This document shows, in pieces, positions 12,174-51,700 of a stretch of DNA of 64,000 bases. The stretch lies in assembly GCA_016933335.1 (NCBI GenBank), contig JAFGBD010000021.1, forward strand, positions 7,665 to 71,664, given 5' to 3'. The notes below the pieces were generated by a model. It ran no database searches, had not been told where the DNA came from, and saw nothing but the letters and a program-made list of their open reading frames with translations. The stretch is from Bacteroidales bacterium. GTDB taxonomy: Bacteria; Bacteroidota; Bacteroidia; Bacteroidales; UBA10428. The position numbers were made by a program, and so were the translations under genes. Each line of letters starts with the position of its first letter. Position 1 is the stretch's first letter.

Positions 12174-12923
12174 TCAGAAATGCAGCTTTTGTTTTAAATT
12201 TTTCAACCCGCTTTTGCTTACTTTTAAGGTAGCACCATTCTTCATTTTGGCAACATAGGTGTCTTTGCCAAAAGGCTCCAGCTGTATCACCTGATCTATT
12301 CTTACGATATATGACCGATGAACCCTGATGAATGCATTGCTGTCAAGATTTTGTTCGAAAAATGACATGGTTGCCTGCTTCAGGTGCTTCCCCTCATCGG
12401 TATAAATCATCACATAATCATCCTGGGCTTCAAGATAATTGATTTTTTCCACGGGGATAACTTTTATTTTAATTCCTGTTTTAACCACAACCCGCTCAAG
12501 CTTTTCTGTTAAAGGCTGACGAACAAGCTTCTGAATATTTTCGGGCCTTTGTTCCTTTTGCTTTATCCTCTTGACGGCCTTTTGCACAGCCTCTGTCAAC
12601 CTTTCGGCAGAATAAGGCTTCATGAGATAATCAATGGCGTTCATTTCAAAAGCCTTGATTGCATACTCATTATGGGCAGTAACAAAAATTACTTCCGGAG
12701 TATCGTCAAGAATTTCAAGCATCTCGAATCCGTTTAGTTTGGGCATTTGGATATCAAGAAAAATCAGGTGCGGCTTCAATTCCTGGATGGCTTTCATCCC
12801 TTCAAATCCGTTGCTGCATTCACCTATGATGTTGATCTCCGGTATGTTCCTTATATAATTTTTTACCAGTTCACGTGCGAGCTCTTCATCATCAATTATC
12901 AAAGCTTTAATCTGATCATCCAT
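12174..12923 (-). CDS. LytR/AlgR-family response regulator (REC + LytTR)
   Basis: REC domain ('ALIIDDEELARE...LDIQMP') followed by a LytTR DNA-binding domain ('INYLEAQDDYVMIYT...FIRVHRSYIV'). Confidence 0.9.
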   Translation of the reverse strand: MDDQIKALIIDDEELARELVKNYIRNIPEINIIGECSNGFEGMKAIQELKPHLIFLDIQMPKLNGFEMLEILDDTPEVIFVTAHNEYAIKAFEMNAIDYLMKPYSAERLTEAVQKAVKRIKQKEQRPENIQKLVRQPLTEKLERVVVKTGIKIKVIPVEKINYLEAQDDYVMIYTDEGKHLKQATMSFFEQNLDSNAFIRVHRSYIVRIDQVIQLEPFGKDTYVAKMKNGATLKVSKSGLKNLKQKLHF

Positions 12924-30017: not shown

Positions 30018-30290
30018 CATAAAAAGTATAAAACCGGCCCTGTTCTCAGCGGAGGAACTGCAAGAGGTTTTGCCCATCCGGGCGCATTGAAAACCGTCGA
30101 GGAGCTGGATCTTAAACCGGATATTATTTCAGGTGCAAGTGCAGGAGCTATTGCAGGAGCATTTTATGCCGACGGTTATAAGCCCGAACCTCTCTGGCAG
30201 ATTTCTTCCCGGCTGTTTAAAAAATCTGATGATCCGCAGTTTCCATCCTTTGTCACTGACAAGACTATGACTTTTTACCTGATTTTGTGA
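30018..30290 (+). pseudogene. patatin-like phospholipase remnant (N-terminal ~90 codons only, no ATG)
   Basis: 'KKYKTGPVLSGGTARGFAHPGALKTVEELDLKPDIISGASAGAIAGAFYADGY' covers the oxyanion-hole motif (degenerate, GGTAR) and the GxSxG serine motif. The catalytic Asp region is absent, and there is no ATG in frame after the upstream TGA at 29985. The ORF runs into the antisense of the next gene. Confidence 0.6.
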
Positions 30291-33200: not shown

Positions 33201-33627
33201 CTTCAGCTATACCAACTGTCTTGGTTATTCTTCCCGGAAAATCAGGATCATTGAAACTTTCAAATCTGTCTTTCAAAGGATTATATGCACACATACCGTC
33301 CTCACCTCCGGCCCAGATATTACCATAACTGTCACATACCAGCTCCCTTATCTGACTAAACCTGGCTTTGGATGTGTCAACAAAGAAATAATCGTAGTTG
33401 TAAATACTGTATCCGTCGAATTTTGAGATACCTGTTCTGGTTCCAAGCCATATAAATCCGTAATCATCCTGGAGTACAGCCCTGACCCTGTTATTATTCA
33501 GTCCATCATCAACTGTTAAGAATCTGAACCGATATTGATCATGAAACCTTCGTTTTTGCTGGCCTGAAGTGTCAGGGAATATCCCGGTAAGTATTATAAT
33601 AAAGATAAATATCCGCCACGGTCTCAT
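30265..33627 (-). CDS. periplasmic two-component-regulator-propeller (Reg_prop + Y_Y_Y) sensor with a cytoplasmic GAF domain and no recognisable output domain
   Basis: Signal peptide from Met 33627 (TSG|QQ). About 12 propeller blades ('NIWIG', 'TIWIG', 'HFWIG', 'GLWMG', 'NIWVG', 'NIWFA', 'ILWLG', 'NLWLS'). Y_Y_Y domain ('YAYILEGYDEQWNY...GGTYFFKVKA'). One TM, a coiled coil, a GAF-like domain ('GEGLIGTCF...LILVPLIYDDEAAGVIEIGS'), and a terminal coiled coil. Confidence 0.8.
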   Translation of the reverse strand: MRPWRIFIFIIILTGIFPDTSGQQKRRFHDQYRFRFLTVDDGLNNNRVRAVLQDDYGFIWLGTRTGISKFDGYSIYNYDYFFVDTSKARFSQIRELVCDSYGNIWAGGEDGMCAYNPLKDRFESFNDPDFPGRITKTVGIAEDDNQVLWFANASEIGNYDLTTKEFTWFRPSPGKPGALPEGSPERIIVDRDNNIWIGYQREGVAYYDRKTNTFTHYTADGDSGSLGENLIERIYEDDKGTIWIGYNNNGFSRFDPGTRQFKTYFPDPGNPESGRVRGILKDSKGHFWIGAMSGLYLFDEFNETFTWYAHTGHPISELSHNSIQCIFQDNQEGLWMGTHAGGVCYTNLNTSGFTRYDYSRIQNPYFLNDKNVYSLAVDQLGNIWVGTEKGGLNYLDRETGQFSYYMHDLNNMNTPLSNNIKDIKVDNRNNIWFAGYGGGFSYLDTETGTFTHYLRSESNPDGFPVNRIYSLYIDPVDNEILWLGAIDGLYSYHIQTKEYVKISPDLTDYTDPPEMNSQIYTINGFQDKLLMGTDKLVVLDLANRHFMTFSEIEGIAITSVNFIHIDREKNIWFDIDNTYLVQANSVFNEFKILGTANGLPEVNYYEACDDSQGNLWLSSNKGIIQLINIIHSQDTVRYNIFKKSDNLQSIEFLYHSKAVSPDGEIFFGGINGFNSFYPENVVTNKYPPQVHITGMTAGNIKVSANQKIRGKVLINEPIIKTERIKIHHRIRVFTLEFVGLQYISPENNKYAYILEGYDEQWNYTDASVRFASYSNLPGGTYFFKVKAANKNSVWSEENAVMKIIVKPPLWKTGWFYIILSLVVLGIVLYLIRRRESQLRADKSILEEKLKAGDLEINRRKEEIEKQKKALEEKEKAEEYHNWFNQGMAMISDILGKEKKDLQKLSQTLISDIVKYMGAQQGGLFLSNNTIENQISIELMAHYAYQSERLDKTSFHPGEGLIGTCFKQKKIIEIDDLPETYAKLHSGLGEDSLKHLILVPLIYDDEAAGVIEIGSFNKIEKSKIDFALKISENIASVVSSVKSNNLISEMLQKTQEQSEELHAQEEEMRQTIEEMQATQEETSRHEKSMQDEIEKLRKQLKEITEINKEQNRKITKSGKKS

Positions 33628-34070
33628 GTTTATCTTTCCGGCTCCCATCTCTAGCTTTTTTATAAATTTACTTAATATGGGGCTTCTATTCAAAGATAAT
33701 TTTCATTTTTTTGAAAAAATTCATGATCCCTTTTTAAATAATGACCCTAATAAACAGATTAACAGTAAAAATCATCTTTGTCAATAATTATTTCCTGAAA
33801 AATCAGAATAATATTCTGTTGTTTTCAGAGTCATAGCATAATTAATGTTGTCTGTGATGATAAAATCAGGATGAAGCAACAATGCATCATTAAAACCACA
33901 TCCTTAAATTAATTCCGGATTCCCGGGCTTCCGGCCTGATGTCTCAACAGTTAAGAAAATGAACAAGTAACAAAGCTTGTTTAACATTATTTGTGAATTT
34001 ATAAAATAATAATAAATTTAATAATTTGTACTTTAACGCGTAATTAGATTACACTCATTTATTTTTAACA

Positions 34071-35618
34071 ATGAACCACATCAACCGACGAACATTTTTA
34101 AAAAATTCTGCTTCTGCAGGAGGGATGTTATTGCTGACACCTTATCTTAGCGGAAGCATGTTAACTTCATTTAAATCGGCACAAACAGGATACTTCGAGC
34201 GCGAATTTGGTATTGATGATGAAATATGCCAGATGTTGCTCGAAAAGGCACTTTCCAAAGGAGGTGATCTTGCCGATGTTTATTTTGAGCATTCCCTTGA
34301 GAACTGGCTGAACCTTGAAGACGGAAAAGTCAGCCGCTCATACGGAAATGTATTACTTGGAGTAGGAATAAGAACAGTTAAAGGTGACCAGGTTGGCTAT
34401 GGCTTTACACAGGAATTAACAAAAGAATCAATGTTATCGGCTGCCGCGACCGCTGCTTCGCTGGTTAATGAATCTGCTGGTACGGTTGCCCAAAGTCTTA
34501 AACTTCTCAAAACACAAAACTATTATCCTTTTGATCCGTCAATGGTCGAGATTCCTTTGGAATCGAAATTGCCTCTTGTAAAAGCCATCAATGATAAATG
34601 CTTTGCCCTGTCAAATCACATTGTCAAAGTAAGTGCCGGCTTTCACGACAGCACCAAAAGAATTTTAATTGCCACCAGTGACGGAGTGAAAGCTGAGGAT
34701 ATCTTGCCACGCAACTTCCTGTATGCTTCAACTGTTGGCGAAAAGGATGGCCGGACTGAACAGTCATGGTATAATTTTGGCGGAAGAAGAGATTTTTCTT
34801 ACTACACCGAGAAACTGACAGATAAACTTGCAGAGGAGGTTATTAAAAGAACTGAGAAACTTTTTGAAGCCATCCAGCCACCTGCAGGCGAGATGCCTGT
34901 AGTACTCGGGCCCGGTGTCACAGGTATCCTGTTGCATGAGGCTATCGGACACGGAATGGAAGCCGATTTCAACCGAAAAAAGATTTCAACCTATTCAACC
35001 ATGATTGGTAAAAAAGTTGCTGAACCCTTTGTAACCATAATCGATGATGGTACAAATCCCCAGCAGCTGGGATCGATCAATGTCGATGATGAAGGAATTC
35101 CTGGACAGAAAACAGTACTGGTTGAAAACGGTGTTTTAACCAGTTATCTGCATGATAAAATCTCTGCAAAACATTATGGTGTGGAACCCACAGGAAATGG
35201 CCGAAGGCAGAGCTTTGAGCACTATCCGCAACCCAGGATGAGAAACACCTATATGCTCTCAGGAGATGCAAATCCCGAAGATGTTATCAAAACTGCCAAA
35301 AACGGGATTTATGTGGAAGATATCAGCAACGGACAGGTCAAGATCGGGGAGGGTGATTTTGCATTTTATGTCTCACAGGGCAGGATGATTGAGGATGGCA
35401 AACTGACGGCTCCTGTCAAAGATATAAATATCATGGGTAACGGACCGAAAATGCTTGAAAATATCATCATGGTTGCCAATGATCTTGAGCTTCATGAAGG
35501 TGGTGCCGGCTCATGTGGTAAGGGCGGACAGAGCGTACCGGTTTCATTCGGGCTGCCTACCTGTCTTGTAAAATCAATGACGGTTGGCGGTACACAGCAG
35601 AAGGGAGGTGCATCATGA
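34071..35618 (+). CDS. tldD: TldD-family metallopeptidase with a twin-arginine signal peptide
   Basis: Tat motif 'NRRTFLK' followed by a hydrophobic region. Metal site 'HEAIGHGMEAD', plus 'GNGRR' and C-terminal TldD blocks. Confidence 0.9.
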   Translation: MNHINRRTFLKNSASAGGMLLLTPYLSGSMLTSFKSAQTGYFEREFGIDDEICQMLLEKALSKGGDLADVYFEHSLENWLNLEDGKVSRSYGNVLLGVGIRTVKGDQVGYGFTQELTKESMLSAAATAASLVNESAGTVAQSLKLLKTQNYYPFDPSMVEIPLESKLPLVKAINDKCFALSNHIVKVSAGFHDSTKRILIATSDGVKAEDILPRNFLYASTVGEKDGRTEQSWYNFGGRRDFSYYTEKLTDKLAEEVIKRTEKLFEAIQPPAGEMPVVLGPGVTGILLHEAIGHGMEADFNRKKISTYSTMIGKKVAEPFVTIIDDGTNPQQLGSINVDDEGIPGQKTVLVENGVLTSYLHDKISAKHYGVEPTGNGRRQSFEHYPQPRMRNTYMLSGDANPEDVIKTAKNGIYVEDISNGQVKIGEGDFAFYVSQGRMIEDGKLTAPVKDINIMGNGPKMLENIIMVANDLELHEGGAGSCGKGGQSVPVSFGLPTCLVKSMTVGGTQQKGGAS

Positions 35619-36937
35619 ACCAGCAGATGTATGATTTATGCAAGTGGGCTAAAGATACGGCCCTGAATAATGGTGCCACTGATTGCCGTGCACGGATGAC
35701 CAGGAGAAGGTTTGTGGAAATACGCTACCGCGATCACAAACCGGAAGTTGTAAAAGAAGCAACAACACGCGGGCTGAACCTCAATATATACATTGGAGGT
35801 AAATTCTCATCACAGAATACTCCCGACTTAAGAAAGGATGCGCTTGAAAGTTTCATTAAGAAAGCTGTTGAAAATACTGGTTTTATAGAAGATGATCCGT
35901 ACCGCTCACTTCCTGATCCGAAGTATTACGAAGGCAGGACAGAGATGGATTTGCAATTGTCAGATCCGGAACATGGCAATATAACTGCCGAACAGCGTCA
36001 TAAGGTTGCCAAAACCATTGAACAGGTGAGTCTTGATAAAGCAGGGGACAAGGTCATCTCGGTGGAAGCAGGAATGAACGACAGCGAATGGGAGGAGGTT
36101 ATTCTTACCAGCAACGGTTTCAAAGGTGCGATGCAGACCACCGATCACTGGGCAGGTGCCTCCGTTACAATTGCTGATGAGGGCGACCGAAAACCGAACG
36201 GATACTTCTGGGCAGGTGCCAGATCATTTGAAGATATGCCATCCGTGAAAACAATAGGTGAAGAAGCCGCTGCAAGAACCCTTGATTTGCTCGGAGCAAA
36301 AAAAATAAAAACAGAATCTCTGCCCGTAATTATTGAAAACAGGGTGGCCGGCAATGTGCTCTGGGGATTTTTAAGCGGTCTTTACGGTAACAACATCCAG
36401 CAGAAGAGATCTTTTCTGGCAGATAAGAAAGGGAAGGTCGTGGCGGGTAAATTGTTTACTATAAAGGATGATCCTTTCATTAAAAAGGGATTTGGCAGCC
36501 GGTTGTACGACGGGGACGGATTTCCTGCCAGAAAAAGAACAATTGTCAGCGAAGGCCGGATTGAGGAATTCCTGATTGACTGGTATTACAGCAGGAAGCT
36601 GGAGTGCGAGCCTACCACCGGAGGTATGTCAAACCTCATCATTCCGCCTGGCGATAAGTCTCCCGAAGCACTGATGAAAGATCTCGGACGAGGAATTCAT
36701 ATTACAGGATTTATAGGTGGAAACTCCAACTCGGCCACAGGAGATTTCTCCATTGGTATTATAGGGAAACTGTTTGAAAACGGTGTGCCAGTCCAGTCAG
36801 TTGCCGAGATGAATATCGCCGATAACCATCTGAATTTCTGGAATAAACTCTCAGCCATTGGGAATGATCCGTGGAAATACGGCAGCTGGCTGACACCAAG
36901 CCTCGTGTTTGATGATGTTCTCGTAGCCGGAATGTAA
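35615..36937 (+). CDS. pmbA: PmbA/TldE-family protein (partner of TldD), no signal peptide
   Basis: TldD/PmbA fold blocks ('GDFSIGIIGKLFENG', 'PSLVFDDVLVAG'), with no HExxxH. The ATGA start overlaps the tldD stop. Confidence 0.8.
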   Translation: MNQQMYDLCKWAKDTALNNGATDCRARMTRRRFVEIRYRDHKPEVVKEATTRGLNLNIYIGGKFSSQNTPDLRKDALESFIKKAVENTGFIEDDPYRSLPDPKYYEGRTEMDLQLSDPEHGNITAEQRHKVAKTIEQVSLDKAGDKVISVEAGMNDSEWEEVILTSNGFKGAMQTTDHWAGASVTIADEGDRKPNGYFWAGARSFEDMPSVKTIGEEAAARTLDLLGAKKIKTESLPVIIENRVAGNVLWGFLSGLYGNNIQQKRSFLADKKGKVVAGKLFTIKDDPFIKKGFGSRLYDGDGFPARKRTIVSEGRIEEFLIDWYYSRKLECEPTTGGMSNLIIPPGDKSPEALMKDLGRGIHITGFIGGNSNSATGDFSIGIIGKLFENGVPVQSVAEMNIADNHLNFWNKLSAIGNDPWKYGSWLTPSLVFDDVLVAGM

Positions 36938-36963
36938 CGGGCTGGCCAGAATATGATTGCACT

Positions 36964-36999
36964 CCATCTCCTCCCTGTTGTATAGCAGGGAGGAGATGG
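36964..36999 (+). terminator. perfect 14-bp stem hairpin after pmbA
   Basis: CCATCTCCTCCCTG-ttgtatag-CAGGGAGGAGATGG starts 27 nt after the stop codon. Only a short TT follows, so it is either a factor-independent terminator of the Bacteroidetes type or an RNA-stability element. Confidence 0.6.
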
Positions 37000-37015
37000 T
37001 TATAACAGATATGCC

Positions 37016-37438
37016 ATGTACCAGAAAGACTATATTCTCAGGATGATTGAAATGTTCGGCGAAATGCTGGCCGGCATTTTCGGATTAATCAAAAAGAGAC
37101 GCTATGAGGAAGCCTCTCAGGCCATTGAAAATGCCTGGATTGAACTCCTTGAAAAAAGTGCTTCTGATATCCTGAAAGTTTATGCTGAAATGCTTCCCCT
37201 GACATTGCAGAAAGATTTCGGTTTTAACCAGCAGCAGCTGGAAGTTGTTGCCGGACTGTTATATGCGGAAGCCGAATTAAATTTCGTGCAAAAAAAGTTA
37301 CGGGAAAGTAAAGTTAACTTTGAAAAATCACTCGTCATTTACAGATACCTGGATAAAGAACAAAAGGTATTTTCACATGAACGGCAGAACAGGATCGCCG
37401 ACATTGAAAAAAGAATATCGGAAGTTTCTTTTTATTAA
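37016..37438 (+). CDS. hypothetical helical protein (140 aa)
   Basis: Clean ORF between a terminator hairpin and the next gene. The composition predicts an all-helical protein. I recognise no family. Confidence 0.5.
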   Translation: MYQKDYILRMIEMFGEMLAGIFGLIKKRRYEEASQAIENAWIELLEKSASDILKVYAEMLPLTLQKDFGFNQQQLEVVAGLLYAEAELNFVQKKLRESKVNFEKSLVIYRYLDKEQKVFSHERQNRIADIEKRISEVSFY

Positions 37439-37477
37439 CTTGCCGCATCATTATTTGAAATTCCCGGTATTCAATCA

Positions 37478-38359
37478 TTGATCCGGATTACTCAGTTTAT
37501 CATGTCATTAAATTTCTTTGTTTCGGATTTGCACGGAAAAACCGACCGGTATGAGAAACTCTTTCAAAAGATTCTTGAAGAAAGACCTGATGCAGTTTTT
37601 CTGGGCGGTGACCTTTTGCCTTCGGGAATAAAAAGTTTTACACACAGCGATGATACGGATTTTGTTCAAAGTACGCTTGTCAATGGATTTAATAATCTTA
37701 AGGAGAAGCTCAAAAATGATTTCCCGAGGATATTCATCATACTGGGTAACGATGACGGCCGTTCTGAAGAACAGGCTTTGATTGAAGCAGAATCAAAGGG
37801 TATCCTTGAATACATTCATAACAGGAAAGTGAATTTTGGTGAATATACCGTATACGGATACTCATACGTTCCTCCCACTCCGTTTCTATTGAAGGACTGG
37901 GAGCGTTATGATGTTTCAAGGTATGTTGATCCGGGCTGTGTTCCGCCTGAAGATGGATACCATACGGTTGGTTTTGATCCCGGTGATATCCTTTACAATA
38001 CCATTCAGAAGGACATTGAACTGCTGGTTGAAAAGGATGATTTATCCAGGGCGATTTTTCTTTTTCATGCACCTCCATACAAGACATATCTGGACAGGGC
38101 TGCACTTGATGATATGATAATAGATCACGTTCCCCTGGATGTGCATGTCGGAAGCACTGCCATTAAAAGATTTATTGAAGAAAAACAACCCCTTCTTACG
38201 TTACACGGGCATATTCATGAATCAGCCAGGTTAACGGGCAGATGGAATGACATCTTAAACAAGACATTTTTATTTTCTGCTGCACATGACGGACGGGAAC
38301 TTGCATTGATCAGGTTCAATCCTGACAAATTGATAGATGCCACACGTGAATTAATCTGA
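37478..38359 (+). CDS. calcineurin-like metallophosphoesterase
   Basis: The motifs appear in the canonical order: 'VSDLHG', 'GGDLLPSG', 'GNDD', 'LFHAPP', 'HGHIHE'. Confidence 0.8.
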   Translation: MIRITQFIMSLNFFVSDLHGKTDRYEKLFQKILEERPDAVFLGGDLLPSGIKSFTHSDDTDFVQSTLVNGFNNLKEKLKNDFPRIFIILGNDDGRSEEQALIEAESKGILEYIHNRKVNFGEYTVYGYSYVPPTPFLLKDWERYDVSRYVDPGCVPPEDGYHTVGFDPGDILYNTIQKDIELLVEKDDLSRAIFLFHAPPYKTYLDRAALDDMIIDHVPLDVHVGSTAIKRFIEEKQPLLTLHGHIHESARLTGRWNDILNKTFLFSAAHDGRELALIRFNPDKLIDATRELI

Positions 38360-38371
38360 AACCGGTAACAT

Positions 38372-41300
38372 CTAACTTGTTTTCCTCATCATCAGAGGAA
38401 GCGCTCCTTCACTTACTGCACCGATCTTGATTGCATAACTGGTGCGGTTTTTAATATCTTCATCTGTTACAATATGGATATCCAGCAATTTTTCAGTTCT
38501 TGAGCCGGTTCGCAGATAATTTATTCTGCCCAGGCAAAAACTCCATCCTTCCATCCATAGAAGCAATTCACTGCGCTGATTTTCATTCCCCCGAAAATGT
38601 ATAAGCAGGTCAATATCGCTGCCAGGTCCGGCTGTCGCATTCTGAACACTCCCGAAAACATAAAAACCAACGACTCCGAACCTTTCAGGATCGATTTTAG
38701 ATGCGATATGCTCTGCATAGCTCAACCTCCAGCGCCAATGAAAATCAGGGCTTTCCATATTAAACATGTCGGCCTTAAAAACACCGAAACTGCTCTCCGG
38801 AACTGAATCGGAAAGTATTGCAAATGCACGTTCTTCTTCAGCGTTCATCAATACATGCAATAAGTTGCCATGCGAGCTTGACGGAACATCAATCACTTTT
38901 ACCACTTCAGAAAATGAATCATAATCAGGAAGCATCTCGCCCAGCCTGTTTTTCGACTCAGAAAAAAAAGGCTCATTATAGTACACACCTTTATCATCAG
39001 GATAAAGTGGTAAATATCGGATATCCGATTCCACAAGATCCTGAAAAAAGTGCGTTCCCAGTGAAGGTTGCGGCATATAGTTTTTCTGTCTCCTGGCAAT
39101 TTCTATCAGCATGGCTGTATTGTTGATATCAGAATAAGCCACACTAACGCCGAGCTTTATGTCTCCCCGGCTACCCCAACGGCCCGGCCCCATCAGAATA
39201 AACTTCCGTTTGGGCAATATTTTGTTCAGACTGCTGACAATCTTTCCGATGGATGCAAGTTTTTCATAACTTTTCAGCTCACTGTATTTTAAAGGATCAA
39301 TATACACGATATGCGAAATATTTGAAACAGTTCCGTTGGAAATAAACCTGTCAGCTGAAAAGAGTATCTTATCTTCAGGCAGATTATGTGGGATGGCAGC
39401 CGGCATACCGGTAATGCTGTAACTTTGAGGCCTGCACTGAAGAAGGAAAAAATCATCACCGTTGTGCGCAAACTCTATATCAACAGGACATCCATATTCT
39501 TTTTCCAGCATATTCAAAACAGAATGTATCTGTGTTGCAAAATCAGTATTATTTATCAATCCGTCAAATGTCACCACATAATGATTTTTTTCAAAATCAA
39601 TTGTAATCTTCTGTGGCTGTTGAATAAAATCTTCGGTAAGTTGTGAAACCAGGAGGTGGATATTGGGATAATCCCTGCCCGATTCTTTTAAAAGATGCAG
39701 CATTTCAATCGTTTCAAAAGTCCGCTTTTCAAGGTTTATTACATCAATTTTTTTCGGCGAATATCTGATAATTTCATCAATTGCAACGTTTACGCGCAAT
39801 TTAGGCTGTCCCGGAGCGATAAGTATCGGATAATCATCGCTTAACCTGTCAACCGCACGGGTACCAAGTCCGGGTACCATCCTTGTCAGTCCGTCTTCTT
39901 TCCTGATACGGTTCGACCATCTGAAATCATTATGGCTGAATGCAACCCCCGAAAATGCAGGCAGAAAATATTTGCCAATGCGCTTTCCGACAACCTCCTG
40001 TAACAGTATTCCCATTTCTTCATGGTAATCTGACAATCCATGTTCTTTGCGGTATTCAATGGGATCGGGCCCGAAAACCGAAGCATAAACTTCGGCAATG
40101 GCATCCAATACCTCAACCAGCCTTTCTTCTTTTGATCCCTGGTTGGCAATAAACAGACTTTTATATTTACCGGCAAATGCCGTTTTCATCCTGTCTTCAA
40201 GCAGACTTGAACTTCTGATAATCAAAGGTGTTTCGCCAAAATCGTCCAGGGCAAGTGATATTTCTTTGATCATTTCAGGACCAAAAGGAGAATTTTTAAA
40301 AACATGTATGACATAGGGATATTCATTTTTTACCTGATCGATGTCCTTATGTATCTGTTCCATGATATCCTCAAGATCATTTCTTTTCATAAAGCTCAGG
40401 ATGGCATCAGAAGTGATATACCATGTTTTCGGAACTTTTATCCGGCTAAAAAATGGATTTTCACCGGCAGACTTCCATAAAATATGGCTGGATAAAAACA
40501 AACCTGAGCTTTTACCCCCTAACTTCCCAAAACTGCCAACCGGCGAAATGATTTGTTTAAGCAGTGTGTAAAAATCTTTTAAATCAATGAACTTTTTTGC
40601 GATGTTGATAAAATCAGGCTGGTCTATCAGCAACCTTCGTATGAGGGCAATTTTGACACTTTTCTCTCTTGATGGTGAAATTTCCAGCCCATGAGAAGAC
40701 AGGTAATAAAACCGTTCAATGGCACTGCTGATTTCTGATAATGAAGATCCCGTGCTTTCAAGAATATTGACCAGAAAACCAGACCTGTCTTCTTTAATCC
40801 ATTTATGGATGCTGTCTATGATTTCCTTTTCATCAAGGTATTTACAGGCCAGTTTAAAAATATCGTAACTTGCTGATATCAGATCATTTGCAGTGGTCTC
40901 CTGATACGGACGGTTATCTCCCTCCTTTAAAAGCTCTATTTTATCCCTGTATGAAGGGGTAAAAGATTCAAATAAGCTTTCAGCCTCCTTTGTGCCGCTC
41001 CAGCACAGATAGTTGATCATTCTTCTTGAAATACGGATAAGCAACTTTGGATTTGTTCCTTTGAGCATTTCAAAAATCGTATGCCATTCAGGTTTTGTTT
41101 CTTTAATAAAATGACCTCCGTTCTCAAAAACTGCTTTCAATTGTCCATGCAAAAGATAAGACCCGATTTGCTCTGCAATGGTATTGATCAGTTTCTGTTC
41201 CTCTTTCAAAAACGGGCCCTTGTATTCTGTCGGTCTTTTTTCGACATAATATACTGACAAGTTCCCGGCCACTTCATCCTGAACAACGATATCAGATAGC

Positions 41301-41545
41301 AGCGCCCATTTTGATTTTTTGAAATCCCCGGAATTAAAAACTTTATCCCGGTAAACCAGCTGTACCTTGCATATATCCGGATACTGCCATCCCTGTGGAA
41401 GGATCTTCACAATTTCACTGAATATCTCATCAATGCTTCTTTCCTTATCATTTAACAGTTCCTGTACCTCATATAAGCAGCTTAATTCTTTGGCTCTTTC
41501 CTTCAGTTCCCTGGTAAGATTATTTACACTTCTTTTTGCACTCAT
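38372..41545 (-). CDS. multidomain protein: 'ELSCLY/WQYP' sensor-like N-terminus + PPDK_N (PEP/pyruvate-binding, ATP-grasp) domain + 'GRWG..GTHFF' module + pol-beta nucleotidyltransferase domain
   Basis: PPDK_N blocks 'GKLGGKSSGL', 'LIIRSSSLLEDRMKTAFAGKYKS', 'MGILLQEVVG' and 'VPGLGTRAVD'. C-terminal NTase motif 'FGSVQNATAGPGSDIDLLIHF' (GS..DxD). The ATGA start overlaps the upstream paralog's stop. Confidence 0.8.
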   Translation of the reverse strand: MSAKRSVNNLTRELKERAKELSCLYEVQELLNDKERSIDEIFSEIVKILPQGWQYPDICKVQLVYRDKVFNSGDFKKSKWALLSDIVVQDEVAGNLSVYYVEKRPTEYKGPFLKEEQKLINTIAEQIGSYLLHGQLKAVFENGGHFIKETKPEWHTIFEMLKGTNPKLLIRISRRMINYLCWSGTKEAESLFESFTPSYRDKIELLKEGDNRPYQETTANDLISASYDIFKLACKYLDEKEIIDSIHKWIKEDRSGFLVNILESTGSSLSEISSAIERFYYLSSHGLEISPSREKSVKIALIRRLLIDQPDFINIAKKFIDLKDFYTLLKQIISPVGSFGKLGGKSSGLFLSSHILWKSAGENPFFSRIKVPKTWYITSDAILSFMKRNDLEDIMEQIHKDIDQVKNEYPYVIHVFKNSPFGPEMIKEISLALDDFGETPLIIRSSSLLEDRMKTAFAGKYKSLFIANQGSKEERLVEVLDAIAEVYASVFGPDPIEYRKEHGLSDYHEEMGILLQEVVGKRIGKYFLPAFSGVAFSHNDFRWSNRIRKEDGLTRMVPGLGTRAVDRLSDDYPILIAPGQPKLRVNVAIDEIIRYSPKKIDVINLEKRTFETIEMLHLLKESGRDYPNIHLLVSQLTEDFIQQPQKITIDFEKNHYVVTFDGLINNTDFATQIHSVLNMLEKEYGCPVDIEFAHNGDDFFLLQCRPQSYSITGMPAAIPHNLPEDKILFSADRFISNGTVSNISHIVYIDPLKYSELKSYEKLASIGKIVSSLNKILPKRKFILMGPGRWGSRGDIKLGVSVAYSDINNTAMLIEIARRQKNYMPQPSLGTHFFQDLVESDIRYLPLYPDDKGVYYNEPFFSESKNRLGEMLPDYDSFSEVVKVIDVPSSSHGNLLHVLMNAEEERAFAILSDSVPESSFGVFKADMFNMESPDFHWRWRLSYAEHIASKIDPERFGVVGFYVFGSVQNATAGPGSDIDLLIHFRGNENQRSELLLWMEGWSFCLGRINYLRTGSRTEKLLDIHIVTDEDIKNRTSYAIKIGAVSEGALPLMMRKTS

Positions 41546-43287
41546 TTTTCTATTGGTTTTAATACCTCTCCCCTTCCTGTTCTTCCGTCAGCCTTTATCA
41601 GTAATTTGCCTTTGGTCCGGATGTGTTTGGTATATTTCATTTCTTCAACAACGATCTGATTGCTCAGCCAGCACCTGTCAAATATGATTTCTGTTCCTGC
41701 CGGTAATGAAAAATAAATCACCCTGAAACTTGTTAAATTATGAAAAAAATGAGATCCCTGGCTCATTTCAACATTTGCAGATCTAACAGATACTTCAACA
41801 ATTACTTTCACTCCCGATATCTGTTGCCATCGTACCGGTATGCCTGCGGCCGGATCAGAAGTACCCCATCTTCCGTAACCAATCATCAGGTATGGACGGT
41901 TTTCATTTACCAGTTTTCTGTTAAACATTTCAACCTCGGAAGCCACCTGGTAAGATATTTTTGCATCAGGATTCGGTATATCTGCATAAACAATATCTGT
42001 TATATTATCAATCATTCCATTGCCAAGGACAGTGCCGGATGATATAAATATCCTGTCTCCTGCGGCTTCTTCTGCCGGATTATCTGTTGCATCTTCAAAA
42101 ACCCTAACAGGCCTTAACTGTAAAAATCCGAACCGTTGAACATCATGTGATAAAGTTACGGCAAATTCTATCTCAACAGGACTTTTTACTGCATTTTCAC
42201 AGACATGAAGAACGGTTTTTATTAACTTGTTCAATGGAAAACTCTCAGCAACAAGAACAGGCGCGAAATTGAGAACACGGGGGCCGTTTCCGCTTAAACC
42301 AGTCCAGAACCTGTCAGAGTCAACATCGTATGTTGAGACAAGATGCCGTAATGTGCCATCTTCTTCTGCATACGACAGGTTTTTCTGAACCATGTATTCG
42401 GTTTCACTGACAGGATCATATTCCGGCGGGGCTCCCATATTTACTGCCCAGAATTCAGTCTGCGTATTCTTTATCATGTCATCTGAAGAATTAAACGGAG
42501 GACCTGATTTCGGGTATTCAGGTGAATACGACCATGAGAAGCCACCGTCAACAATTGTCTTACCCAGTCCAAGCGCCAGGTTTACAACACCATCTTCAGG
42601 TTTTGAATGACCGGTCGGATAGTAATTATATGAACGGGCAACACCGGATATTTCAGGATAAAACCTGTCTTCATATCTTGAACCGGCAATTTCCTGAATG
42701 ATAACTGCCATTTTCTCATCTTCCGTTTTATATTTTGTCGTATGAATATAGTCTTTGGCTGCCCTGAAATATGTTGAAGCATAAACATACTTGATCGCTT
42801 CGGTGAGCTTTCTGAACCTTGTATCAACATCATGCTGGTTATTGGGAGTCATCTTTGTTCCGTATATGCCGGCAAAAGGCATAGATAAAGAATCCTCAAG
42901 CAGGCTGGAAGATCGGATTGCCAGAGGACTGTGTATCCCGGAGATAAAAGTTCGCAAAACACCAAGAATTCTGAACGGCAGGTTTGCCTTCTGAAATGAA
43001 AGAGCTATCATGTCATCCGAAGCATCTGACAATGCGGTTTCATAGAGGTTGTTTTCCTGCATAAATGAATCGAAGACATCAGTAAGGATTACAACCATCT
43101 TAGGTATGCATATTTCAATACTTTGAAAATCAGAAGTATTGATTTCCGACCTCAGGATATCGCTGATGGAGACCAGGCCGCTGGCTTTTCCTCCCAATGA
43201 TCCTGTACCAATAAAACTTATTGACCTGTCTGATTCAAAAAAGTCTTCATCAAACGAAGAAATATCTTTGAAAATAAAATCGACCAT
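41542..43287 (-). CDS. PPDK_N (PEP/pyruvate-binding, ATP-grasp) domain protein with a 'GRWG..GSHFF' C-terminal module
   Basis: 'GTGSLGGKASGL', 'LAIRSSSLLEDSLSMPFAGIYGT', 'MAVIIQEIAG' and 'LALGLGKTIVDG'. The C-terminal 'MIGYGRWGTSDP...SQGSHFFHNL' is paralogous to the downstream gene. Confidence 0.8.
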   Translation of the reverse strand: MVDFIFKDISSFDEDFFESDRSISFIGTGSLGGKASGLVSISDILRSEINTSDFQSIEICIPKMVVILTDVFDSFMQENNLYETALSDASDDMIALSFQKANLPFRILGVLRTFISGIHSPLAIRSSSLLEDSLSMPFAGIYGTKMTPNNQHDVDTRFRKLTEAIKYVYASTYFRAAKDYIHTTKYKTEDEKMAVIIQEIAGSRYEDRFYPEISGVARSYNYYPTGHSKPEDGVVNLALGLGKTIVDGGFSWSYSPEYPKSGPPFNSSDDMIKNTQTEFWAVNMGAPPEYDPVSETEYMVQKNLSYAEEDGTLRHLVSTYDVDSDRFWTGLSGNGPRVLNFAPVLVAESFPLNKLIKTVLHVCENAVKSPVEIEFAVTLSHDVQRFGFLQLRPVRVFEDATDNPAEEAAGDRIFISSGTVLGNGMIDNITDIVYADIPNPDAKISYQVASEVEMFNRKLVNENRPYLMIGYGRWGTSDPAAGIPVRWQQISGVKVIVEVSVRSANVEMSQGSHFFHNLTSFRVIYFSLPAGTEIIFDRCWLSNQIVVEEMKYTKHIRTKGKLLIKADGRTGRGEVLKPIEK

Positions 43288-43322
43288 CCATTATAAACAG
43301 ATTGATGGTAAAAATGATCTTT

Positions 43323-44609
43323 TTAAACCCATCCACGGTCGCGACATGCCTGGACCACACGATTCACGGAAATGACATAGGCAGCATCCCTCATGCCCAT
43401 TTTATTTGTCCTGGCAAAATCACTTACAGCCAGATAGGCAGATGTCATTTTCATATCAAGCTTCCCGAGAACCTCATCCTTTTCCCAGAAATAATTCATG
43501 TTACATTGCACCTGTTCAAAGTAACTGCATACAACGCCACCTGCATTTGCAAGAAAATCAGGTATTACATGTATATTACCCTTTTGAATGATTTCATCTG
43601 CTTCACGTGTTGTTGGTCCGTTTGCACCTTCTGCAAGTATCTTTACCCTTTTGCTAATCTTCTCTGTATTATCAGCCCTGATCTGATTTTCAAGGGCAGC
43701 AGGAACCAAAATGTCTACATCCTGTTCTATCCAGGCATCACCTGGCAATACCTCATAACCCAAATCCCGGGCTTTTGATTTGTCAATTCCGCCAAAAGAA
43801 TCTGTTATTTTAGTTAATTCATCAAGATCAATGCCGTCTTTTTTTCTGAACGAATAACTGGTTTTATCTTCTTCATCCCATGAAGATACACAAATTACCC
43901 TGCCTCCCATTTTATGGTACAATTCGATGGCGTATTTTGCAACATTACCAAATCCCTGAATGCTTGCCACGGTATTTTCCGGTTTGATTTTCTGTTCTTT
44001 TAAAGCTTCACGAACCGTAATCATCACGCCATACCCTGTTGCTTCGGTTCTTCCCCTGGAACCTCCCATACCAACCGGTTTACCGGTAATAAAGCCGGGA
44101 AGCTTTTCCCCGCATATCAATTCATATTCATCAAGCATCCATAGCATGTGTTGCGGATTTGTCATAACATCCGGCGCAGGAATATCAATATTCGGCCCGA
44201 CATTTTTTACTATCTGACGTACCCATCCGCGACAAATATGTTCCTGTTCAGATTTACTCAGATGATGCGGATCGCATATAACTCCTCCCTTTCCTCCGCC
44301 AAGCGGAATATCTGCAACCGAAGTTTTCCAGGTCATCCACATAGACAAAGCTCTGACAGTATCTATCGTCTCCATTGGGTGAAAACGGATACCACCTTTG
44401 GCCGGACCTCTTGCATCGTTATGCTGAACACGGAACCCCCGGAAAATTTTAACACTCCCGTCATCCATCCTGATAGGAATGGAAAAATGATATTCCCTTA
44501 CAGGATTTCTTAAAAGATCTCTTTCGGCCTGATTTAGTTCCAGCAAATCAGCAGCATGATCAAATTGTTTTTGAGCAGTATCAAAAGGGTTGTATGTTTT
44601 CTCATTCAT
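43323..44609 (-). CDS. gdhA: glutamate dehydrogenase (Glu/Leu/Phe/Val dehydrogenase family)
   Basis: 428 aa. Catalytic-lysine block 'PLGGGKGGVICDP', Rossmann motif 'IQGFGNVA', and 'ANAGGV' near the C-terminus. Confidence 0.95.
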   Translation of the reverse strand: MNEKTYNPFDTAQKQFDHAADLLELNQAERDLLRNPVREYHFSIPIRMDDGSVKIFRGFRVQHNDARGPAKGGIRFHPMETIDTVRALSMWMTWKTSVADIPLGGGKGGVICDPHHLSKSEQEHICRGWVRQIVKNVGPNIDIPAPDVMTNPQHMLWMLDEYELICGEKLPGFITGKPVGMGGSRGRTEATGYGVMITVREALKEQKIKPENTVASIQGFGNVAKYAIELYHKMGGRVICVSSWDEEDKTSYSFRKKDGIDLDELTKITDSFGGIDKSKARDLGYEVLPGDAWIEQDVDILVPAALENQIRADNTEKISKRVKILAEGANGPTTREADEIIQKGNIHVIPDFLANAGGVVCSYFEQVQCNMNYFWEKDEVLGKLDMKMTSAYLAVSDFARTNKMGMRDAAYVISVNRVVQACRDRGWV

Positions 44610-44952
44610 AAGCTTATGAAAATTAAACTAATATGTAATATGTTGAATACAATCAGAAGAAATGGTCCTGGTTAAGAAAAGTATCAGCAGTTGGAATTTT
44701 ATGAATCCTGATAATCCTGTTCATCAGATTTTAATTAATGCAAATATAAAAATTTTTTTTATGCCATAAATGACATAAAATATGCCGGTGCATGATGTAT
44801 TAATACCCGCATACAATACCGGTACAATCACAGGTATGAAACACCAAAGCAGTTTTTTTGAATCATTTCCCATAGCAAACCAGTTACATGGAAGAATATA
44901 GCTGTTTGATCAAATTAAAGGTTATATTACTCACGGCATAAGTGTTTACTGG

Positions 44953-44960
44953 TATCTTTG
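44953..44960 (+). promoter_or_regulatory. Bacteroidetes -7 box TATCTTTG
   Basis: Matches TAnnTTTG 44 nt upstream of the ATG at 45004. Confidence 0.35.
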
Positions 44961-45003
44961 TATTGTTATCCGTTAAAAAGTCTTATTATTGCTTTTCCTG
45001 TCT

Positions 45004-46410
45004 ATGAAAGAAAAACAAAAAAAACGACTTTGGCTGGCCTTCATACCAATGCTGGTCTTAAACCTGATATTAAAAGGCAATACCGAGTATAAGCCCGCTG
45101 TATATCCTGAACATGAGACTGATACTCCTGATTTTTGTATGACCGGTTATGCCACTGTTGAGGCAGAGGGACTGTTAACCACGACAGGAGGTGAAGGCGG
45201 AACAACCGATACGGTTTCCACACTTGATGAATTGCAGGCATTTGCCAAATCCAGGGAAAAAAACACATCACCGGGGATATTGTACATCAAAGGAAAGATC
45301 GAAAGCCAGGAAAGTCTTACTGTTTCGATCAAGCACGGTGCCAATGTTTCTGTCATCGGACTCGGCAGTGATGCAGAATTAAAAAATGTCGGACTGAATA
45401 TCTGGGATTATACCAATGTCATAGTCAGAAATCTCACCATACATGAAGTCCTTTACCCCGACGATGCCATTACCATTGACGAATGTCACCATGTCTGGAT
45501 TGACCATTGTGAACTTTACAGCAAAATCGGCGAAGGTATTGATGTGGATACTTATGACGGACTTCTTGATATCAAGAACGGTTCCAGATATGTTACACTG
45601 TCCTGGAATTACCTTCATGATCACATGAAATGCTCACTTATCGGGCATTCAGACGGCTCAAGTCATGAAGCCACCGACTCTCAGTTCAGGATAACATTTC
45701 ATCATAATTATTTCCGTTTCACCGACGGCCGTAATCCAAGTCTTCGTTTCGGGGCTCTGCATATGTTCAATAATTACCTTGAGAATATCACCGATTACGG
45801 TATTGCAATCCGTCAGGCAGGCCATGCAAAGCTTGAAAACAACCACTTCGAAAGTGTAAACATACCGGTTACAACAAATAAATTTGACGGACCGGAAGGT
45901 TATGCCTGCCTGTCAGGCAATATCTATACCGGTACCTGCTCGGCTGATGATAATTCAATCACCCAGACTGATTGTGATTTCTGGAATGATCTGCCTTATT
46001 CCTATACGCTTGATTCAGCCAATCATGTGGCAATGCTGGCAAAGCTTTTTGCAGGTGCCGGAGTGCTCGACACCATCAAAGCAGCCGGTCCTGATACAAA
46101 TGGAATAACTGTTGGTGAAAAGGAAATTATCGTGCCCGTATCAACACGGAAATTCAGTGTTTCACTGCCCTACCCTAATCCCGTGCATAGCATGTTCAAC
46201 ATTGATATTTTCGTCCCCGGGACCGGCCTGGTTGATATGCTGGTTACCGATATAAGCGGCCTGTTTTTGCAATCACTGCCTCCTGTAATGCTATCCGAGG
46301 GGAAAAATACCATTCAGATTACAAGAGGCAACCTGAAGGCCGGGATGTATTTTTATGTCTTTGAATTTCACGGTAACAAGTTCCTGAGAAAAGTTGTCGT
46401 CATTGACTAA
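45004..46410 (+). CDS. pectate lyase (PL1 family) with a T9SS C-terminal sorting domain
   Basis: 'VWIDHCELY', 'DGLLDIKNGSRYVTLSWNY' and 'GRNPSLRFGALHMFNNY' are PL1 blocks. The final ~80 aa ('SLPYPNPVHSMFNI...GMYFYVFEF..KFLRKVVVID') look like a type A Por/T9SS tail. I preferred the ATG at 45004 over the TTG at 44989. Confidence 0.85.
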   Translation: MKEKQKKRLWLAFIPMLVLNLILKGNTEYKPAVYPEHETDTPDFCMTGYATVEAEGLLTTTGGEGGTTDTVSTLDELQAFAKSREKNTSPGILYIKGKIESQESLTVSIKHGANVSVIGLGSDAELKNVGLNIWDYTNVIVRNLTIHEVLYPDDAITIDECHHVWIDHCELYSKIGEGIDVDTYDGLLDIKNGSRYVTLSWNYLHDHMKCSLIGHSDGSSHEATDSQFRITFHHNYFRFTDGRNPSLRFGALHMFNNYLENITDYGIAIRQAGHAKLENNHFESVNIPVTTNKFDGPEGYACLSGNIYTGTCSADDNSITQTDCDFWNDLPYSYTLDSANHVAMLAKLFAGAGVLDTIKAAGPDTNGITVGEKEIIVPVSTRKFSVSLPYPNPVHSMFNIDIFVPGTGLVDMLVTDISGLFLQSLPPVMLSEGKNTIQITRGNLKAGMYFYVFEFHGNKFLRKVVVID

Positions 46411-48727: not shown

Positions 48728-51700
48728 ATGTTCCGGAAAGTTATAGAGTTTTCCATACAGAATAAAGCCATCATCGGTTTCCTGGTAATTGTGATGATTG
48801 GTTTCGGGATCTATTCCATGACACAATTACCCATTGATGCTGTTCCTGATATCACAAACAACCAGGTTCAGGTTGTTACCACAGCCCCTTCTCTTTCACC
48901 CCAGGAGGTGGAACGGTTCATAACCTATCCGCTTGAAATCTCTATGGCCAATATTACCGATGTTATTGAAATAAGAAGTATTTCACGGTATGGTTTATCG
49001 GTACTTACCATCGTATTTAAAGAAAAAGTACCGATTCTGCATGCCCGTCAGCTTGTAAGCGAACAGATAAAGCTTGCTGAATCTGATATTCCCGAAGGTC
49101 TGGGAATACCGGAAATGCTTCCCATCACAACCGGTCTGGGTGAAGTTTTTCAATATACCCTTGAGGTGAAAAAAGGATATGAAGGTAAATACTCGGCAAC
49201 AGATTTACGTGAAATCCAGGACTGGATTATAAAACGACAATTGTCAGGAATTCCTGGTATTGTTGAAATCAGCAGTTTCGGCGGATATCTGAAGCAATTT
49301 GAAATTGCTGTTGATCCCATGCGCATGAAGAGCCTCAGACTGACCTGCTCTGATGTTTTTGAAGCTGTAAGCAAAAATAACCAGAACACGGGCGGAAGCT
49401 ATATCGAAAAATCCGCCAACGCATATTACATCCGGACAGAAGGACTTCTAAAAAATATCAGTGACATTGAAAATGTCGTTGTTACAAACAGAAACGGAAA
49501 TCCGGTTCTTATCAAACATATTGCGGATGTTTACATTGGATTTGCACCCCGTTTCGGGGCAATGACCAAAAACGGGAAAGGTGAAGCAGTGGGAGGAATC
49601 ACCCTCATGCTGAAAGGTGCCAGCTCTTCAAAAGTTGTCAAAGAAGTCAAAGAAAAAATAAAAAGAGTGGAGAAGTCACTGCCTGAAGGCATTACCATCA
49701 ATCCTTACCTGGACAGGGCTGAATTAATCTCCAAAACAACGAATACCGTAACAAAAAATCTCATCGAAGGAGGTCTGATCGTCATATTTATTCTTGTTCT
49801 TCTGCTTGGCCATTTTCGTTCAGGTTTGATAGTGGCTTCGGTAATTCCGCTATCGATGCTGTTTGGTTTTATCATGATGCATATTTTTGGCGTATCTGCC
49901 AACCTGATGTCGCTTGGGGCAATTGACTTCGGTATTGTGGTGGACGGTGCCGTTATCATTGTTGAGAGTATTATTTATCATGTATATAAAGACCATGTGG
50001 GAAAGGTCCTTTCCCGGAAAGAGACAGATACAGTTGTAAAAAAAGCATCCGCCAGCATCTATCAGTCAGCCTCATTTGGTGTAATTATCATTCTTATCGT
50101 TTTTATTCCTATTATGGCGCTGACAGGTATAGAAGGCAAGACTTTCAGACCAATGGCCCAGACATTCTGTTTTGTAATTCTCGGTGCTTTTTTTCTTTCC
50201 ATGACCTATGTGCCTATGATGTCGGCCCTGCTGCTGAATAAAAAGATTGAATATAAAAAAACACTCTCTGACAGGGTGATCAGATTTCTGAAACTAACTT
50301 ATCATCCGATACTTAAATTTTCACTGGCAAATAAATATACCATTCTTATCGTTACCGCAATTGTGTTTATGATCAGTATCTGGTCGTTCACAAAACTGGG
50401 GGGAGAATTTGTCCCGACACTTGAGGAAGGAGACCTTGCCATGCAGATGACAATACCTGCCGGCAGCTCACTTTCTCAAAGCATCATTACAACAACCAGG
50501 GCAGAAAAAATCCTGATGGAGAATTTCCCTGAAGTACAACAGGTCATTTCAAAAATCGGAACTGCCGAAGTACCTACAGATCCAATGGCCATTGAAGACG
50601 CTGATATCATGATCATATTAAAGGATAAAAAACAATGGGTAAGTGCAAAAAACCGTGAAGAACTGATTGAAAAAATGAAGGCAAAGCTTGGTGTCATTAC
50701 AGCAGCGCAATTTGAATTCACCCAGCCGATACAGCTTCGTTTCAACGAGCTGATAACCGGAGTGAAAACAGACATCGCCGTTAAAATATATGGTGAAGAT
50801 CTTGATGAACTCTATGCACAGGCAAACAAAGCTGCCGGAATAATATCGAAACTTGAAGGTGCAGCTGACGTTAAAGTTGAACAAATCACAGGATTACCGC
50901 AGCTTGTTATTCAGTTCGATCATAAAAAAATTGCCCGGTACGGATTAAATATCAGCCAGCTTAACTCCATCATACGAACTGCTTATGCCGGAGAGAAGGC
51001 AGGTGTTATTTTTGAGGGTGAAAGAAAATTCGATCTGGTTGTAAGAATGGATTCCTCCCTGCGTACAGAACTGAATCTGAATAAACTTTCTGTGCCGACG
51101 CCTGACGGTCAGATCATACCTTTGAGTGAAGTCGCCAAAGCTGTTTATATTGAAGGTCCGGTCCATATAGCACGTGACGGAACAAAACGCCGGATAACAA
51201 TCGGGATCAATGTCAGAAATCGCGATATCCAGAGCCTGGTCAGTGAAATTGATAATAAACTTGCATCCGGGCTGATCCTGAAACCCGGATACTACACTAC
51301 CTATGGAGGCCAGTTTGAAAACCTTCAGAATGCAAAGAAAAGACTGACGGTTGCCCTGCCAGTTGCACTTTTACTCATACTCATTATGCTGTTTTTTACA
51401 TTCAATTCCATTAAGTATGCTTTATTGATATTCACTGCTGTTCCTCTTTCTGCAGTGGGTGGCATTGCAGCACTGTGGATCCGGGGACTGCCTTTCAGCA
51501 TCTCTGCGGGTGTCGGTTTTATCGCTCTTTTTGGTGTGGCTGTTTTAAACGGAATCGTACTTATCTCCAATTACAATGAAATGAAGGCTCAGGGGATTGA
51601 AAACATAAAATACATCGTGATCAAAGGAGCATGTACCCGCCTTCGTCCGGTTATGATGACTGCAACCACCGATATTCTGGGATTTCTTCCTATGGCAGTT

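Follow-up and report, generated by a model that had tools for sequence, protein, structure and literature searches.

A conserved glutamate dehydrogenase-linked pair of PPDK_N ATP-grasp paralogs as a candidate regulatory module in bacteria

Glutamate dehydrogenase (GDH) occupies the point where carbon and nitrogen metabolism meet. Post-translational control in bacteria is textbook knowledge for glutamine synthetase and, to our knowledge, essentially unknown for GDH. Among small nucleotidyltransferases (NTases), MntA AMPylates a protein partner. Among the dikinases, the hydroxyphenylethanone kinase HpeHI has been described as a two-component enzyme (PDB 9goj; PMC12167813). Here we analyse a locus of a Bacteroidales bacterium of the lineage UBA10428 in which the gene for a GDH is followed by genes for two paralogous ATP-grasp proteins that combine parts reminiscent of these systems. 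The analysed stretch, referred to as the window, comprises 64,000 nucleotides (nt) of contig JAFGBD010000021.1 (assembly GCA_016933335.1, positions 7,665 to 71,664, forward strand). The gene order proved to be shared by distant bacteria, and we tentatively favour the reading that the encoded module is a sensor-controlled, ATP-dependent and reversible covalent regulator of GDH.

The first operon gene, gdh (43323..44609, minus strand), encodes a protein of 428 amino acids (aa) that Pfam and PDB matches assign to the hexameric 'family II / archaeal-type' GDHs. A spacer of 35 nt, measured from the gdh stop to the next ATG (43288..43322, minus strand), separates it from the gene of the small paralog (41542..43287, minus strand; 581 aa), which consists of a PPDK_N ATP-grasp domain and a C-terminal module (C-module) according to Pfam, AlphaFold2 (AF2) and Foldseek. 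The gene of the large paralog (38372..41545, minus strand; 1057 aa) encodes, in this order, a GAF-like domain, a helical domain, a PPDK_N ATP-grasp domain, a C-module, a linker and an NTase of the minimal (MNT) type. Its start overlaps the stop of the small gene in an ATGA (41542..41545, minus strand), which at the level of the sequence implies translational coupling of the two genes. Order, coordinates, gap and overlap are exactly those given in the initial annotation of this DNA. A calcineurin-like metallophosphoesterase gene (37502..38359, plus strand) lies beyond the large gene as a separate transcription unit, outside the segment covered by the initial annotation.

Thousands of homologs of the large protein exist, with 50-80% identity over more than ten phyla, and a scan of one genome per species located relatives in at least 515 genomes. 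Synteny was analysed in the best 80 of these, where the large homologs are 50-77% identical to the window protein. Neighbours were identified by tblastn of the window proteins against the loci; counts refer to the 70 loci with enough flanking sequence or, for the small paralog, to 77 loci. The best 80 loci represent more than 10 phyla, among them Bacteroidota, Calditrichota, Ignavibacteria, Acidobacteriota, Chloroflexota, Planctomycetota and Zixibacteria, and further include Eisenbacteria, Fermentibacteria, Aminicenantes and Myxococcota. The gdh linkage, which the initial annotation could report for one genome, extends to 67 of 70 loci: upstream of the large gene, at a distance of at most 3 kb, lies a gdh gene 60-85% identical to that of the window, which has the same orientation in 65 cases and is divergent in two. 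Of 77 loci, 58 encode the small paralog directly upstream of the large gene; in loci without it, gdh abuts the large gene directly. The small and the large protein also occur naturally fused head to tail, as in P0096 and other proteins of about 1630 aa, in a gdh...Metallophos context. The pair is a conserved neighbourhood and in some genomes a single gene. The natural fusion argues that both proteins act as one unit, and they probably act as a heteromer. Since the identical gene order recurs across phyla, the arrangement is not due to chance. Clustering of open reading frames (ORFs) at the loci examined yielded no conserved neighbours other than gdh, the paralog and the phosphoesterase; in particular, glnA, gltB, amtB and PII genes were not among the conserved neighbours.

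Both proteins contain the PPDK_N domain (PF01326), as had been proposed from their motifs. In the small paralog it spans residues 30-407 (42067..43200, minus strand; Pfam E 6e-37) and in the large paralog residues 342-722 (39380..40522, minus strand; Pfam E 2.7e-58). The proteins are 28% identical across 535 aa (E 1e-34) in an alignment that extends into the C-module, and by sequence they qualify as true paralogs. The motifs GGKSSGL or GGKASGL and IRSSSLLED...FAGKY or FAGIY are present in the two proteins, and the nucleotide-site motifs GGK, RSS..ED, FAG, EIEFA/IEFA and Q.RP of both align with Escherichia coli PpsA. Because these PpsA motifs are kept and are invariant across the homologs of both paralogs (66 for the small and 72 for the large protein), both ATP sites look functional, as judged from sequence. 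AF2 models built on the alignments of the same 66 and 72 homologs reached a mean predicted local distance difference test score (pLDDT) of 83.8 and a predicted template modelling (TM) score of 0.83 for the small protein, and 78.7 and 0.64 for the large one. Compared with the PDB by Foldseek, the small model matched rifampin phosphotransferase (Rph) best (5hv1, E 7e-15; HpeI, E 2e-11) and the ATP-grasp part of the large model likewise matched this enzyme (5hv3, E 4e-14); the order for the ATP-grasp domains was Rph, then HpeI, phosphoenolpyruvate (PEP) synthase (2ols) and pyruvate phosphate dikinase (PPDK; 1kbl). A Pfam scan found no PEP-utilizers_C, rifampin-binding domain or carbohydrate-binding module (CBM) in either protein. 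The NCBIfam models of PEP synthase, Rph and PigC scored far below threshold (11-66 bits against cut-offs of 456-1700), and a PDB sequence search with both proteins gave no significant match. The source annotations of the homologs are generic, and our Pfam, NCBIfam, PDB and literature searches yielded no close homolog of defined function, in line with the initial annotation.

The C-module of about 140 residues is shared by both paralogs and carries the common motifs GxGRWG[ST]xD and G[ST]HFF. It covers residues ~408-545 of the small protein (41653..42066, minus strand), with invariant GYGRWGTSD and SQGSH513FFHN, and residues ~723-862 of the large protein (38960..39379, minus strand), with invariant GPGRWGSRGD and SLGTH832FFQD. 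Both motifs map to the lowest-confidence loops of otherwise confident AF2 models (low pLDDT at residues 791-799 and 820-831 of the large and 503-507 of the small protein), which suggests, within the limits of such models, that the conserved loops may be mobile active-site or binding loops. The initial annotation could not find the canonical phosphohistidine swivel motif in either protein and described a distinct shared module in its place, and this description holds in three kinds of comparison. The swivel family PF00391 (PEP-utilizers) had no match in the full proteins at E<=0.1, and the isolated C-modules had no Pfam match even at E<=10. A C-module profile search of the PDB found no PEP-utilizer; it returned a weak match to the GxGRxG motif of the KtrA Rossmann fold (E 0.009) that is probably spurious. 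The order of secondary-structure elements and a histidine at the N-terminus of a helix in the AF2 model prompted the idea of a diverged swivel domain; sequence methods gave it no support, and hhalign against 13 canonical swivel domains, taken from E. coli PpsA and from plasmid-borne PEPS, PPDK, Rph, PtsP and Pyk genes, returned a probability of 0.2%. At the sequence level the C-module is a new domain with a superfamily of about 2030 clusters at 50% identity; Foldseek on whole models cannot isolate the domain.

The large protein carries additional domains at both ends. A long N-terminal helix and a GAF-like domain (residues 1-~142; 41120..41545, minus strand) were recognised by AF2 and Foldseek, the predicted secondary structure being helix, six-stranded sheet, helix. 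Foldseek matched this part to GAF domains (NifA, 8jrc; 3K2N) with a probability of 1.0, weak E values of 0.03-0.2 and TM scores of ~0.4-0.5. The N-terminus that had been called sensor-like is GAF-like at the level of the fold, and the Pfam GAF model stays below threshold (E 0.13). Residues W53, Q54, C59, W80, G94, Y100, G110, F112 and E116 of this region are invariant. It is followed by an all-helical domain (residues ~150-330; 40556..41098, minus strand; AF2 secondary structure) without a Pfam match.

The NTase tail, recognised as pol-beta-type from the start, is of the MNT-like kind (residues ~935-1057; 38375..38743, minus strand; Pfam and Foldseek). NTP_transf_2 matches residues 954-1003 (E 4.5e-8; 33.8 bits against a cut-off of 21), and the generic Pfam models Polbeta and MTPAP-like match as well. 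Residues G965-S966, D977-I-D979 and D1022 are invariant in 72 sequences and fit the catalytic pattern hG[GS]x9-13 Dh[DE]h plus a third carboxylate. By Foldseek the tail resembles the MNT antitoxins 8xeo, 7bxo and 7ae9 (probability 0.99-1.0) and AadA/AAD(9); NCBIfam MntA matches the large protein with E 7e-4.

The metallophosphoesterase is the fourth conserved gene. In the window it is convergent with the large gene, the two stops being 12 nt apart, and an alignment of homologs favours ATG 37502 as its start over TTG 37478, from which the ORF was listed. Its product matches Pfam PF00149 (Metallophos) with 44 bits against a cut-off of 21.5, and its metal motifs D17-x-H19, G44-D45, G90-N-D-D93, H197 and H243-G-H245-x-H247 do not vary among 15 homologs. 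No PDB relative was found by sequence or profile search. When neighbouring ORFs were clustered, 46 of 70 loci proved to encode a phosphoesterase of about 285 aa directly downstream of the large gene, in 45 of them convergently, and this adjacency fits a pair of writer and eraser. The four-gene layout was confirmed by independent gene calls in a Saprospiraceae genome, and such calls also showed it around a natural fusion protein. Upstream of the phosphoesterase and on the same strand, the window contains a TldD/PmbA metallopeptidase pair (34071-36937, plus strand) and a 140-aa ORF with a sub-threshold match to DUF6483 (37016-37438, plus strand), which are not conserved beside the module elsewhere.

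The GDH of the operon matches the Pfam families ELFV_dehydrog_N (E 1e-53) and ELFV_dehydrog (E 3e-67). Its closest PDB structures are the GDHs of Thermococcus/Pyrococcus with E values of about 1e-117 (1euz, E 1.5e-117), and the NCBIfam model GdhA_Arch scores 458 bits, under its equivalog cut-off of 750. Compared with Thermococcus profundus GDH, the operon-linked enzymes carry two short insertions, SWDxxDxxSY and KxKAxxLGYE, at residues ~243-249 and ~278-285, in which W244 and Y285 are at least 97% conserved among 55 sequences; the outgroup of this comparison is a single archaeal lineage and the set is too narrow for an assignment. Going by the sequences, these insertions are possible docking or modification sites.

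A further line of evidence comes from a sister family in which the same core is combined with another type of sensor. This family, found as a third protein with PPDK_N and C-module in several loci, has the architecture REC-REC-PPDK_N-C-module, a length of about 990 aa and 40% identity to the small paralog over the part they have in common; two receiver-like domains and a DUF5752-like segment are found at its N-terminus. A metagenome scan with a full-length alignment gave 80 full-length loci, 44 of which have at least 2 kb on both sides. In 18 of these 44 a gdh of the E. coli type (family I) is the direct neighbour, and in 24 one lies no more than 4 kb away; over all 80 loci GDH is by far the commonest neighbour (34 loci). 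2-oxoacid:ferredoxin oxidoreductase subunits, prolyl oligopeptidase and a POT peptide transporter also recur, the oxidoreductase genes lying directly upstream of the sister-family genes in L109, L111, L114 and L138; the neighbourhood is thus one of amino-acid catabolism. L111 (4459-7962), L114, L143 (4285-7878) and L139 (1732-6405) encode paralogs of the family in tandem, one of about 1150-1200 aa beside one of about 990 aa, and also a 1557-aa form; the tandem pairs mirror the pairing of small and large protein in the window. Overall, the enzyme superfamily has two sensor-bearing branches, and the class of GDH to which they are linked differs between them.

Exact-sequence look-ups placed the sister family in Phocaeicola plebeius, Bacteroides nordii and B. 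ovatus. BT1971/BT1972 had been considered as Bacteroides orthologs and were rejected, BT1971 being a catalase. In a Bacteroides nordii-like locus (L130) a 444-aa gdhA is followed after about 2.3 kb by the sister-family gene in convergent orientation. A 73-aa ORF (11283-11504, minus strand) and a 144-aa ORF of the helix-turn-helix (HTH) type (12240-12674, minus strand) lie in between. Activity of GdhA from Bacteroides thetaiotaomicron reportedly requires one or more trans-acting genes downstream of gdhA, an unexplained post-transcriptional dependence (Baggio & Morrison, J Bacteriol 1996; cited in PMC4539542). The sister-family gene and the 73-aa and 144-aa ORFs are alternative candidates for this factor. 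GDH of B. fragilis is also reported to undergo reversible inactivation in vivo (Yamamoto/Saito).

How could these parts work together? Signalling enzymes usually consist of a constant enzymatic core and swappable sensor inputs. Here the core of PPDK_N and C-module is constant and is joined to GAF-like or REC domains, which argues for a signalling enzyme rather than a pathway enzyme. The near-obligate link to the gene of one enzyme in turn suggests GDH as the client. The three nucleotide-using centres and the phosphoesterase all look live from their conserved residues. In the regulatory reading that we favour, the GAF-like domain, or the receiver domain in the sister family, would sense a metabolic or signalling input. 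The units of ATP-grasp domain and C-module might then transfer a phosphoryl group to GDH in a dikinase-like manner, perhaps via the invariant histidine of the C-module; as an alternative or in addition, the NTase could nucleotidylylate GDH, and the metallophosphoesterase would remove the attached group. We infer GDH as the target, the nature of the transferred group, the carrier role of the histidine and the eraser role of the phosphoesterase from this arrangement. The complete scheme, a new and widespread on/off switch of GDH built from dikinase-like enzymes with a histidine carrier, a minimal NTase and a dedicated phosphoesterase eraser, strikes us as less likely than not, though as a realistic prospect. 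We would place about the same modest trust in two extensions, namely that such a switch is the counterpart of glutamine-synthetase adenylylation and that the sister family explains the 1996 report.

Several observations weigh against a regulator of GDH. In three loci (L007, L051 and L064) the 10 kb upstream of the large gene contain no gdh; the small paralog of L064 is also shifted by about 1.4 kb. The phosphoesterase gene lies on the opposite strand and is missing in about one third of the loci. No relation of the C-module to the swivel domain was detectable, which makes a phospho-carrier function guesswork. The trans-acting region of 1996 may instead correspond to the small ORFs between gdhA and the sister-family gene. 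Finally, the cross-phylum identity of 50-60% is unusually high for regulators and would also fit a core metabolic enzyme.

This last point leads to the possibility that the proteins form a small-molecule dikinase or ligase in which the ATP-grasp pair, together with the NTase, phosphorylates or nucleotidylates a metabolite from the surroundings of glutamate, 2-oxoglutarate, ammonium and NAD(P)H, and which is co-expressed with GDH because of a shared pathway. We regard this as unlikely, even though the very high conservation across phyla agrees with it, characterised PPDK_N enzymes act on small molecules or glucans, and the neighbours of the sister family are genes of amino-acid catabolism. PEP synthase, PPDK, Rph, HpeHI and PigC are also the top sequence or fold matches (PMC12167813). 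However, Pfam detects none of the known dikinase substrate domains (PEP-utilizers_C, RIF-binding, CBM), fusion of the core to GAF-like or receiver domains is unusual for pathway enzymes, and GDH and the phosphoesterase are the only candidate pathway genes conserved nearby.

The synteny with gdh would also fit if the paralogs were non-covalent partners of GDH, either ATP-dependent allosteric subunits or an assembly or activation factor acting on the GDH hexamer. Precedents for non-covalent association are the accessory domains of the 180-kDa GDHs and the complex of GDH with a homolog of adenine phosphoribosyltransferase (APRT) in Thermus. High conservation is compatible with extensive protein-protein interfaces, the GDHs carry conserved surface-type insertions relative to the Thermococcus enzyme (W244, Y285), and the 1996 report, by which GDH activity needs one or more trans-acting genes, can be read in the same way. 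On the other hand, it is difficult to see, if no chemistry takes place, why three catalytic centres should be intact and the phosphoesterase conserved, and we consider purely non-covalent action to be quite unlikely.

It is improbable, in our view, that the module produces a nucleotide messenger or acts on another regulator and that gdh is merely co-transcribed as part of a nitrogen regulon. GAF-like and REC sensor domains are present, and the NTase fold also occurs in cyclic-nucleotide and alarmone-type enzymes; yet the link is specific to two classes of GDH and does not extend to glnA, gltB, amtB or PII. Finally, a xenobiotic- or antibiotic-modifying pair, the alternative offered by the initial annotation, or a toxin-antitoxin or anti-phage module built on the MNT-type NTase is so improbable as to be disfavoured outright, for although the parts resemble Rph, aminoglycoside adenylyltransferases and MNT antitoxins by fold and PADLOC gave weak matches of the NTase to the candidate system PDC-S09 (E ~1e-6 over 37 residues), PADLOC had no match for the small protein, the locus is chromosomally fixed beside a housekeeping gene across phyla, no HEPN partner, mobile-element or resistance-gene context was seen at the loci examined, and conservation is strongly purifying, unlike that of defence or resistance islands.

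If the regulatory reading is true, the module would represent a new regulatory modification of a central enzyme, it would add to the dikinase superfamily a mechanistic branch of its own that is marked by a novel carrier or substrate domain, and it would provide a concrete candidate behind the old, unexplained observations on GDH activity in Bacteroides. Even if GDH is not the target, the proteins constitute a sizeable unannotated enzyme family (580-1060 aa) with an unusually clear genomic clue. Cultivated hosts for testing exist in Melioribacter, Caldithrix and Bacteroides, and the sister family is present in abundant Bacteroides and Phocaeicola of the human gut.

The Bacteroides -7 promoter consensus is TAnnTTTG, and a possible Bacteroidetes-type -7 element, TATATTTG (44741..44748, minus strand), was read from the sequence about 130 nt upstream of the gdh ATG, which is weak evidence. 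A sigma-70 promoter scan around the operon showed no enrichment, with fewer sites than in shuffled sequences; a terminator scan of the same region was uninformative, again with fewer sites than in shuffles. We looked for a terminator-like site in the 35-nt spacer between gdh and the small gene and found none, and an Rfam search of 36500-45500 for RNA elements and riboswitches gave no match at E<=0.1. Two further ORFs of the window have unusual architectures. A 1442-aa ORF (48728-53056, plus strand) joins a full AcrB-type transporter of the resistance-nodulation-division (RND) class (ACR_tran, 6-1029) to an OEP domain of an outer-membrane factor (1280-1440); these are normally separate genes, and the ORF is either a real fusion or an assembly or frameshift artefact. 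A 1142-aa protein (30265-33693, minus strand) combines beta-propeller repeats (Reg_prop) and a Y_Y_Y domain with GAF at its C-terminus; the domain scan found in it none of the histidine-kinase, receiver or AraC parts that hybrid two-component sensors of Bacteroidetes usually have.

Full-text literature searches turned up no study of these proteins and nothing that connects PPDK_N proteins, NTases and GDH. With PEP synthase, PPDK and Rph the small and large proteins share a PPDK_N domain with all nucleotide-site motifs. However, those enzymes have a swivel domain (PF00391) and substrate domains, and the two proteins have neither; instead they possess a C-module, unrelated at the sequence level, with an invariant histidine of its own, added GAF-like and NTase domains, a paralogous pairing and the link to gdh. 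HpeHI and phenylphosphate synthase resemble the module in that the PPDK_N unit is encoded apart from its partner. These two-component dikinases act on a phenol and have the canonical swivel histidine domain on the partner subunit; in the module, another complete ATP-grasp paralog takes the place of that partner, and a gene for a swivel subunit was not among the neighbours in the window or at the loci examined. The type VII toxin-antitoxin system MntA-HepT shares the minimal NTase fold and the G-S...DxD motif with the tail of the large protein; no HEPN toxin gene was found in the window or in the 80 loci, and here the NTase forms the C-terminal domain of an enzyme of 1057 aa whose operon has a housekeeping character.

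The 1996 observations share with the present locus that a GDH of Bacteroidota reportedly depends on one or more neighbouring genes, and a sister-family gene does neighbour gdhA in Bacteroides. They concern, however, a GDH belonging to the other class, whose neighbour of interest would be the REC-type sister family and not the GAF/NTase protein of the window. A parallel in logic is provided by GlnE, the adenylyltransferase of glutamine synthetase, and GlnD, the uridylyltransferase of PII, which likewise combine a pol-beta NTase with sensing at the node of ammonium assimilation and with reversible modification. The comparison with GlnE and GlnD in the initial annotation is an analogy of logic and does not extend to family membership, because Pfam and NCBIfam scans detected generic NTase models and none of the GlnE repeat, GlnD_UR_UTase, HD or ACT domains. 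The presumed target also differs, being GDH rather than glutamine synthetase or PII, and the ATP-grasp pair and the metallophosphoesterase are without counterpart in GlnE and GlnD. In conclusion, compared with all of these systems, the module joins known kinds of domain and one new domain in an architecture and a genomic association that are undescribed.

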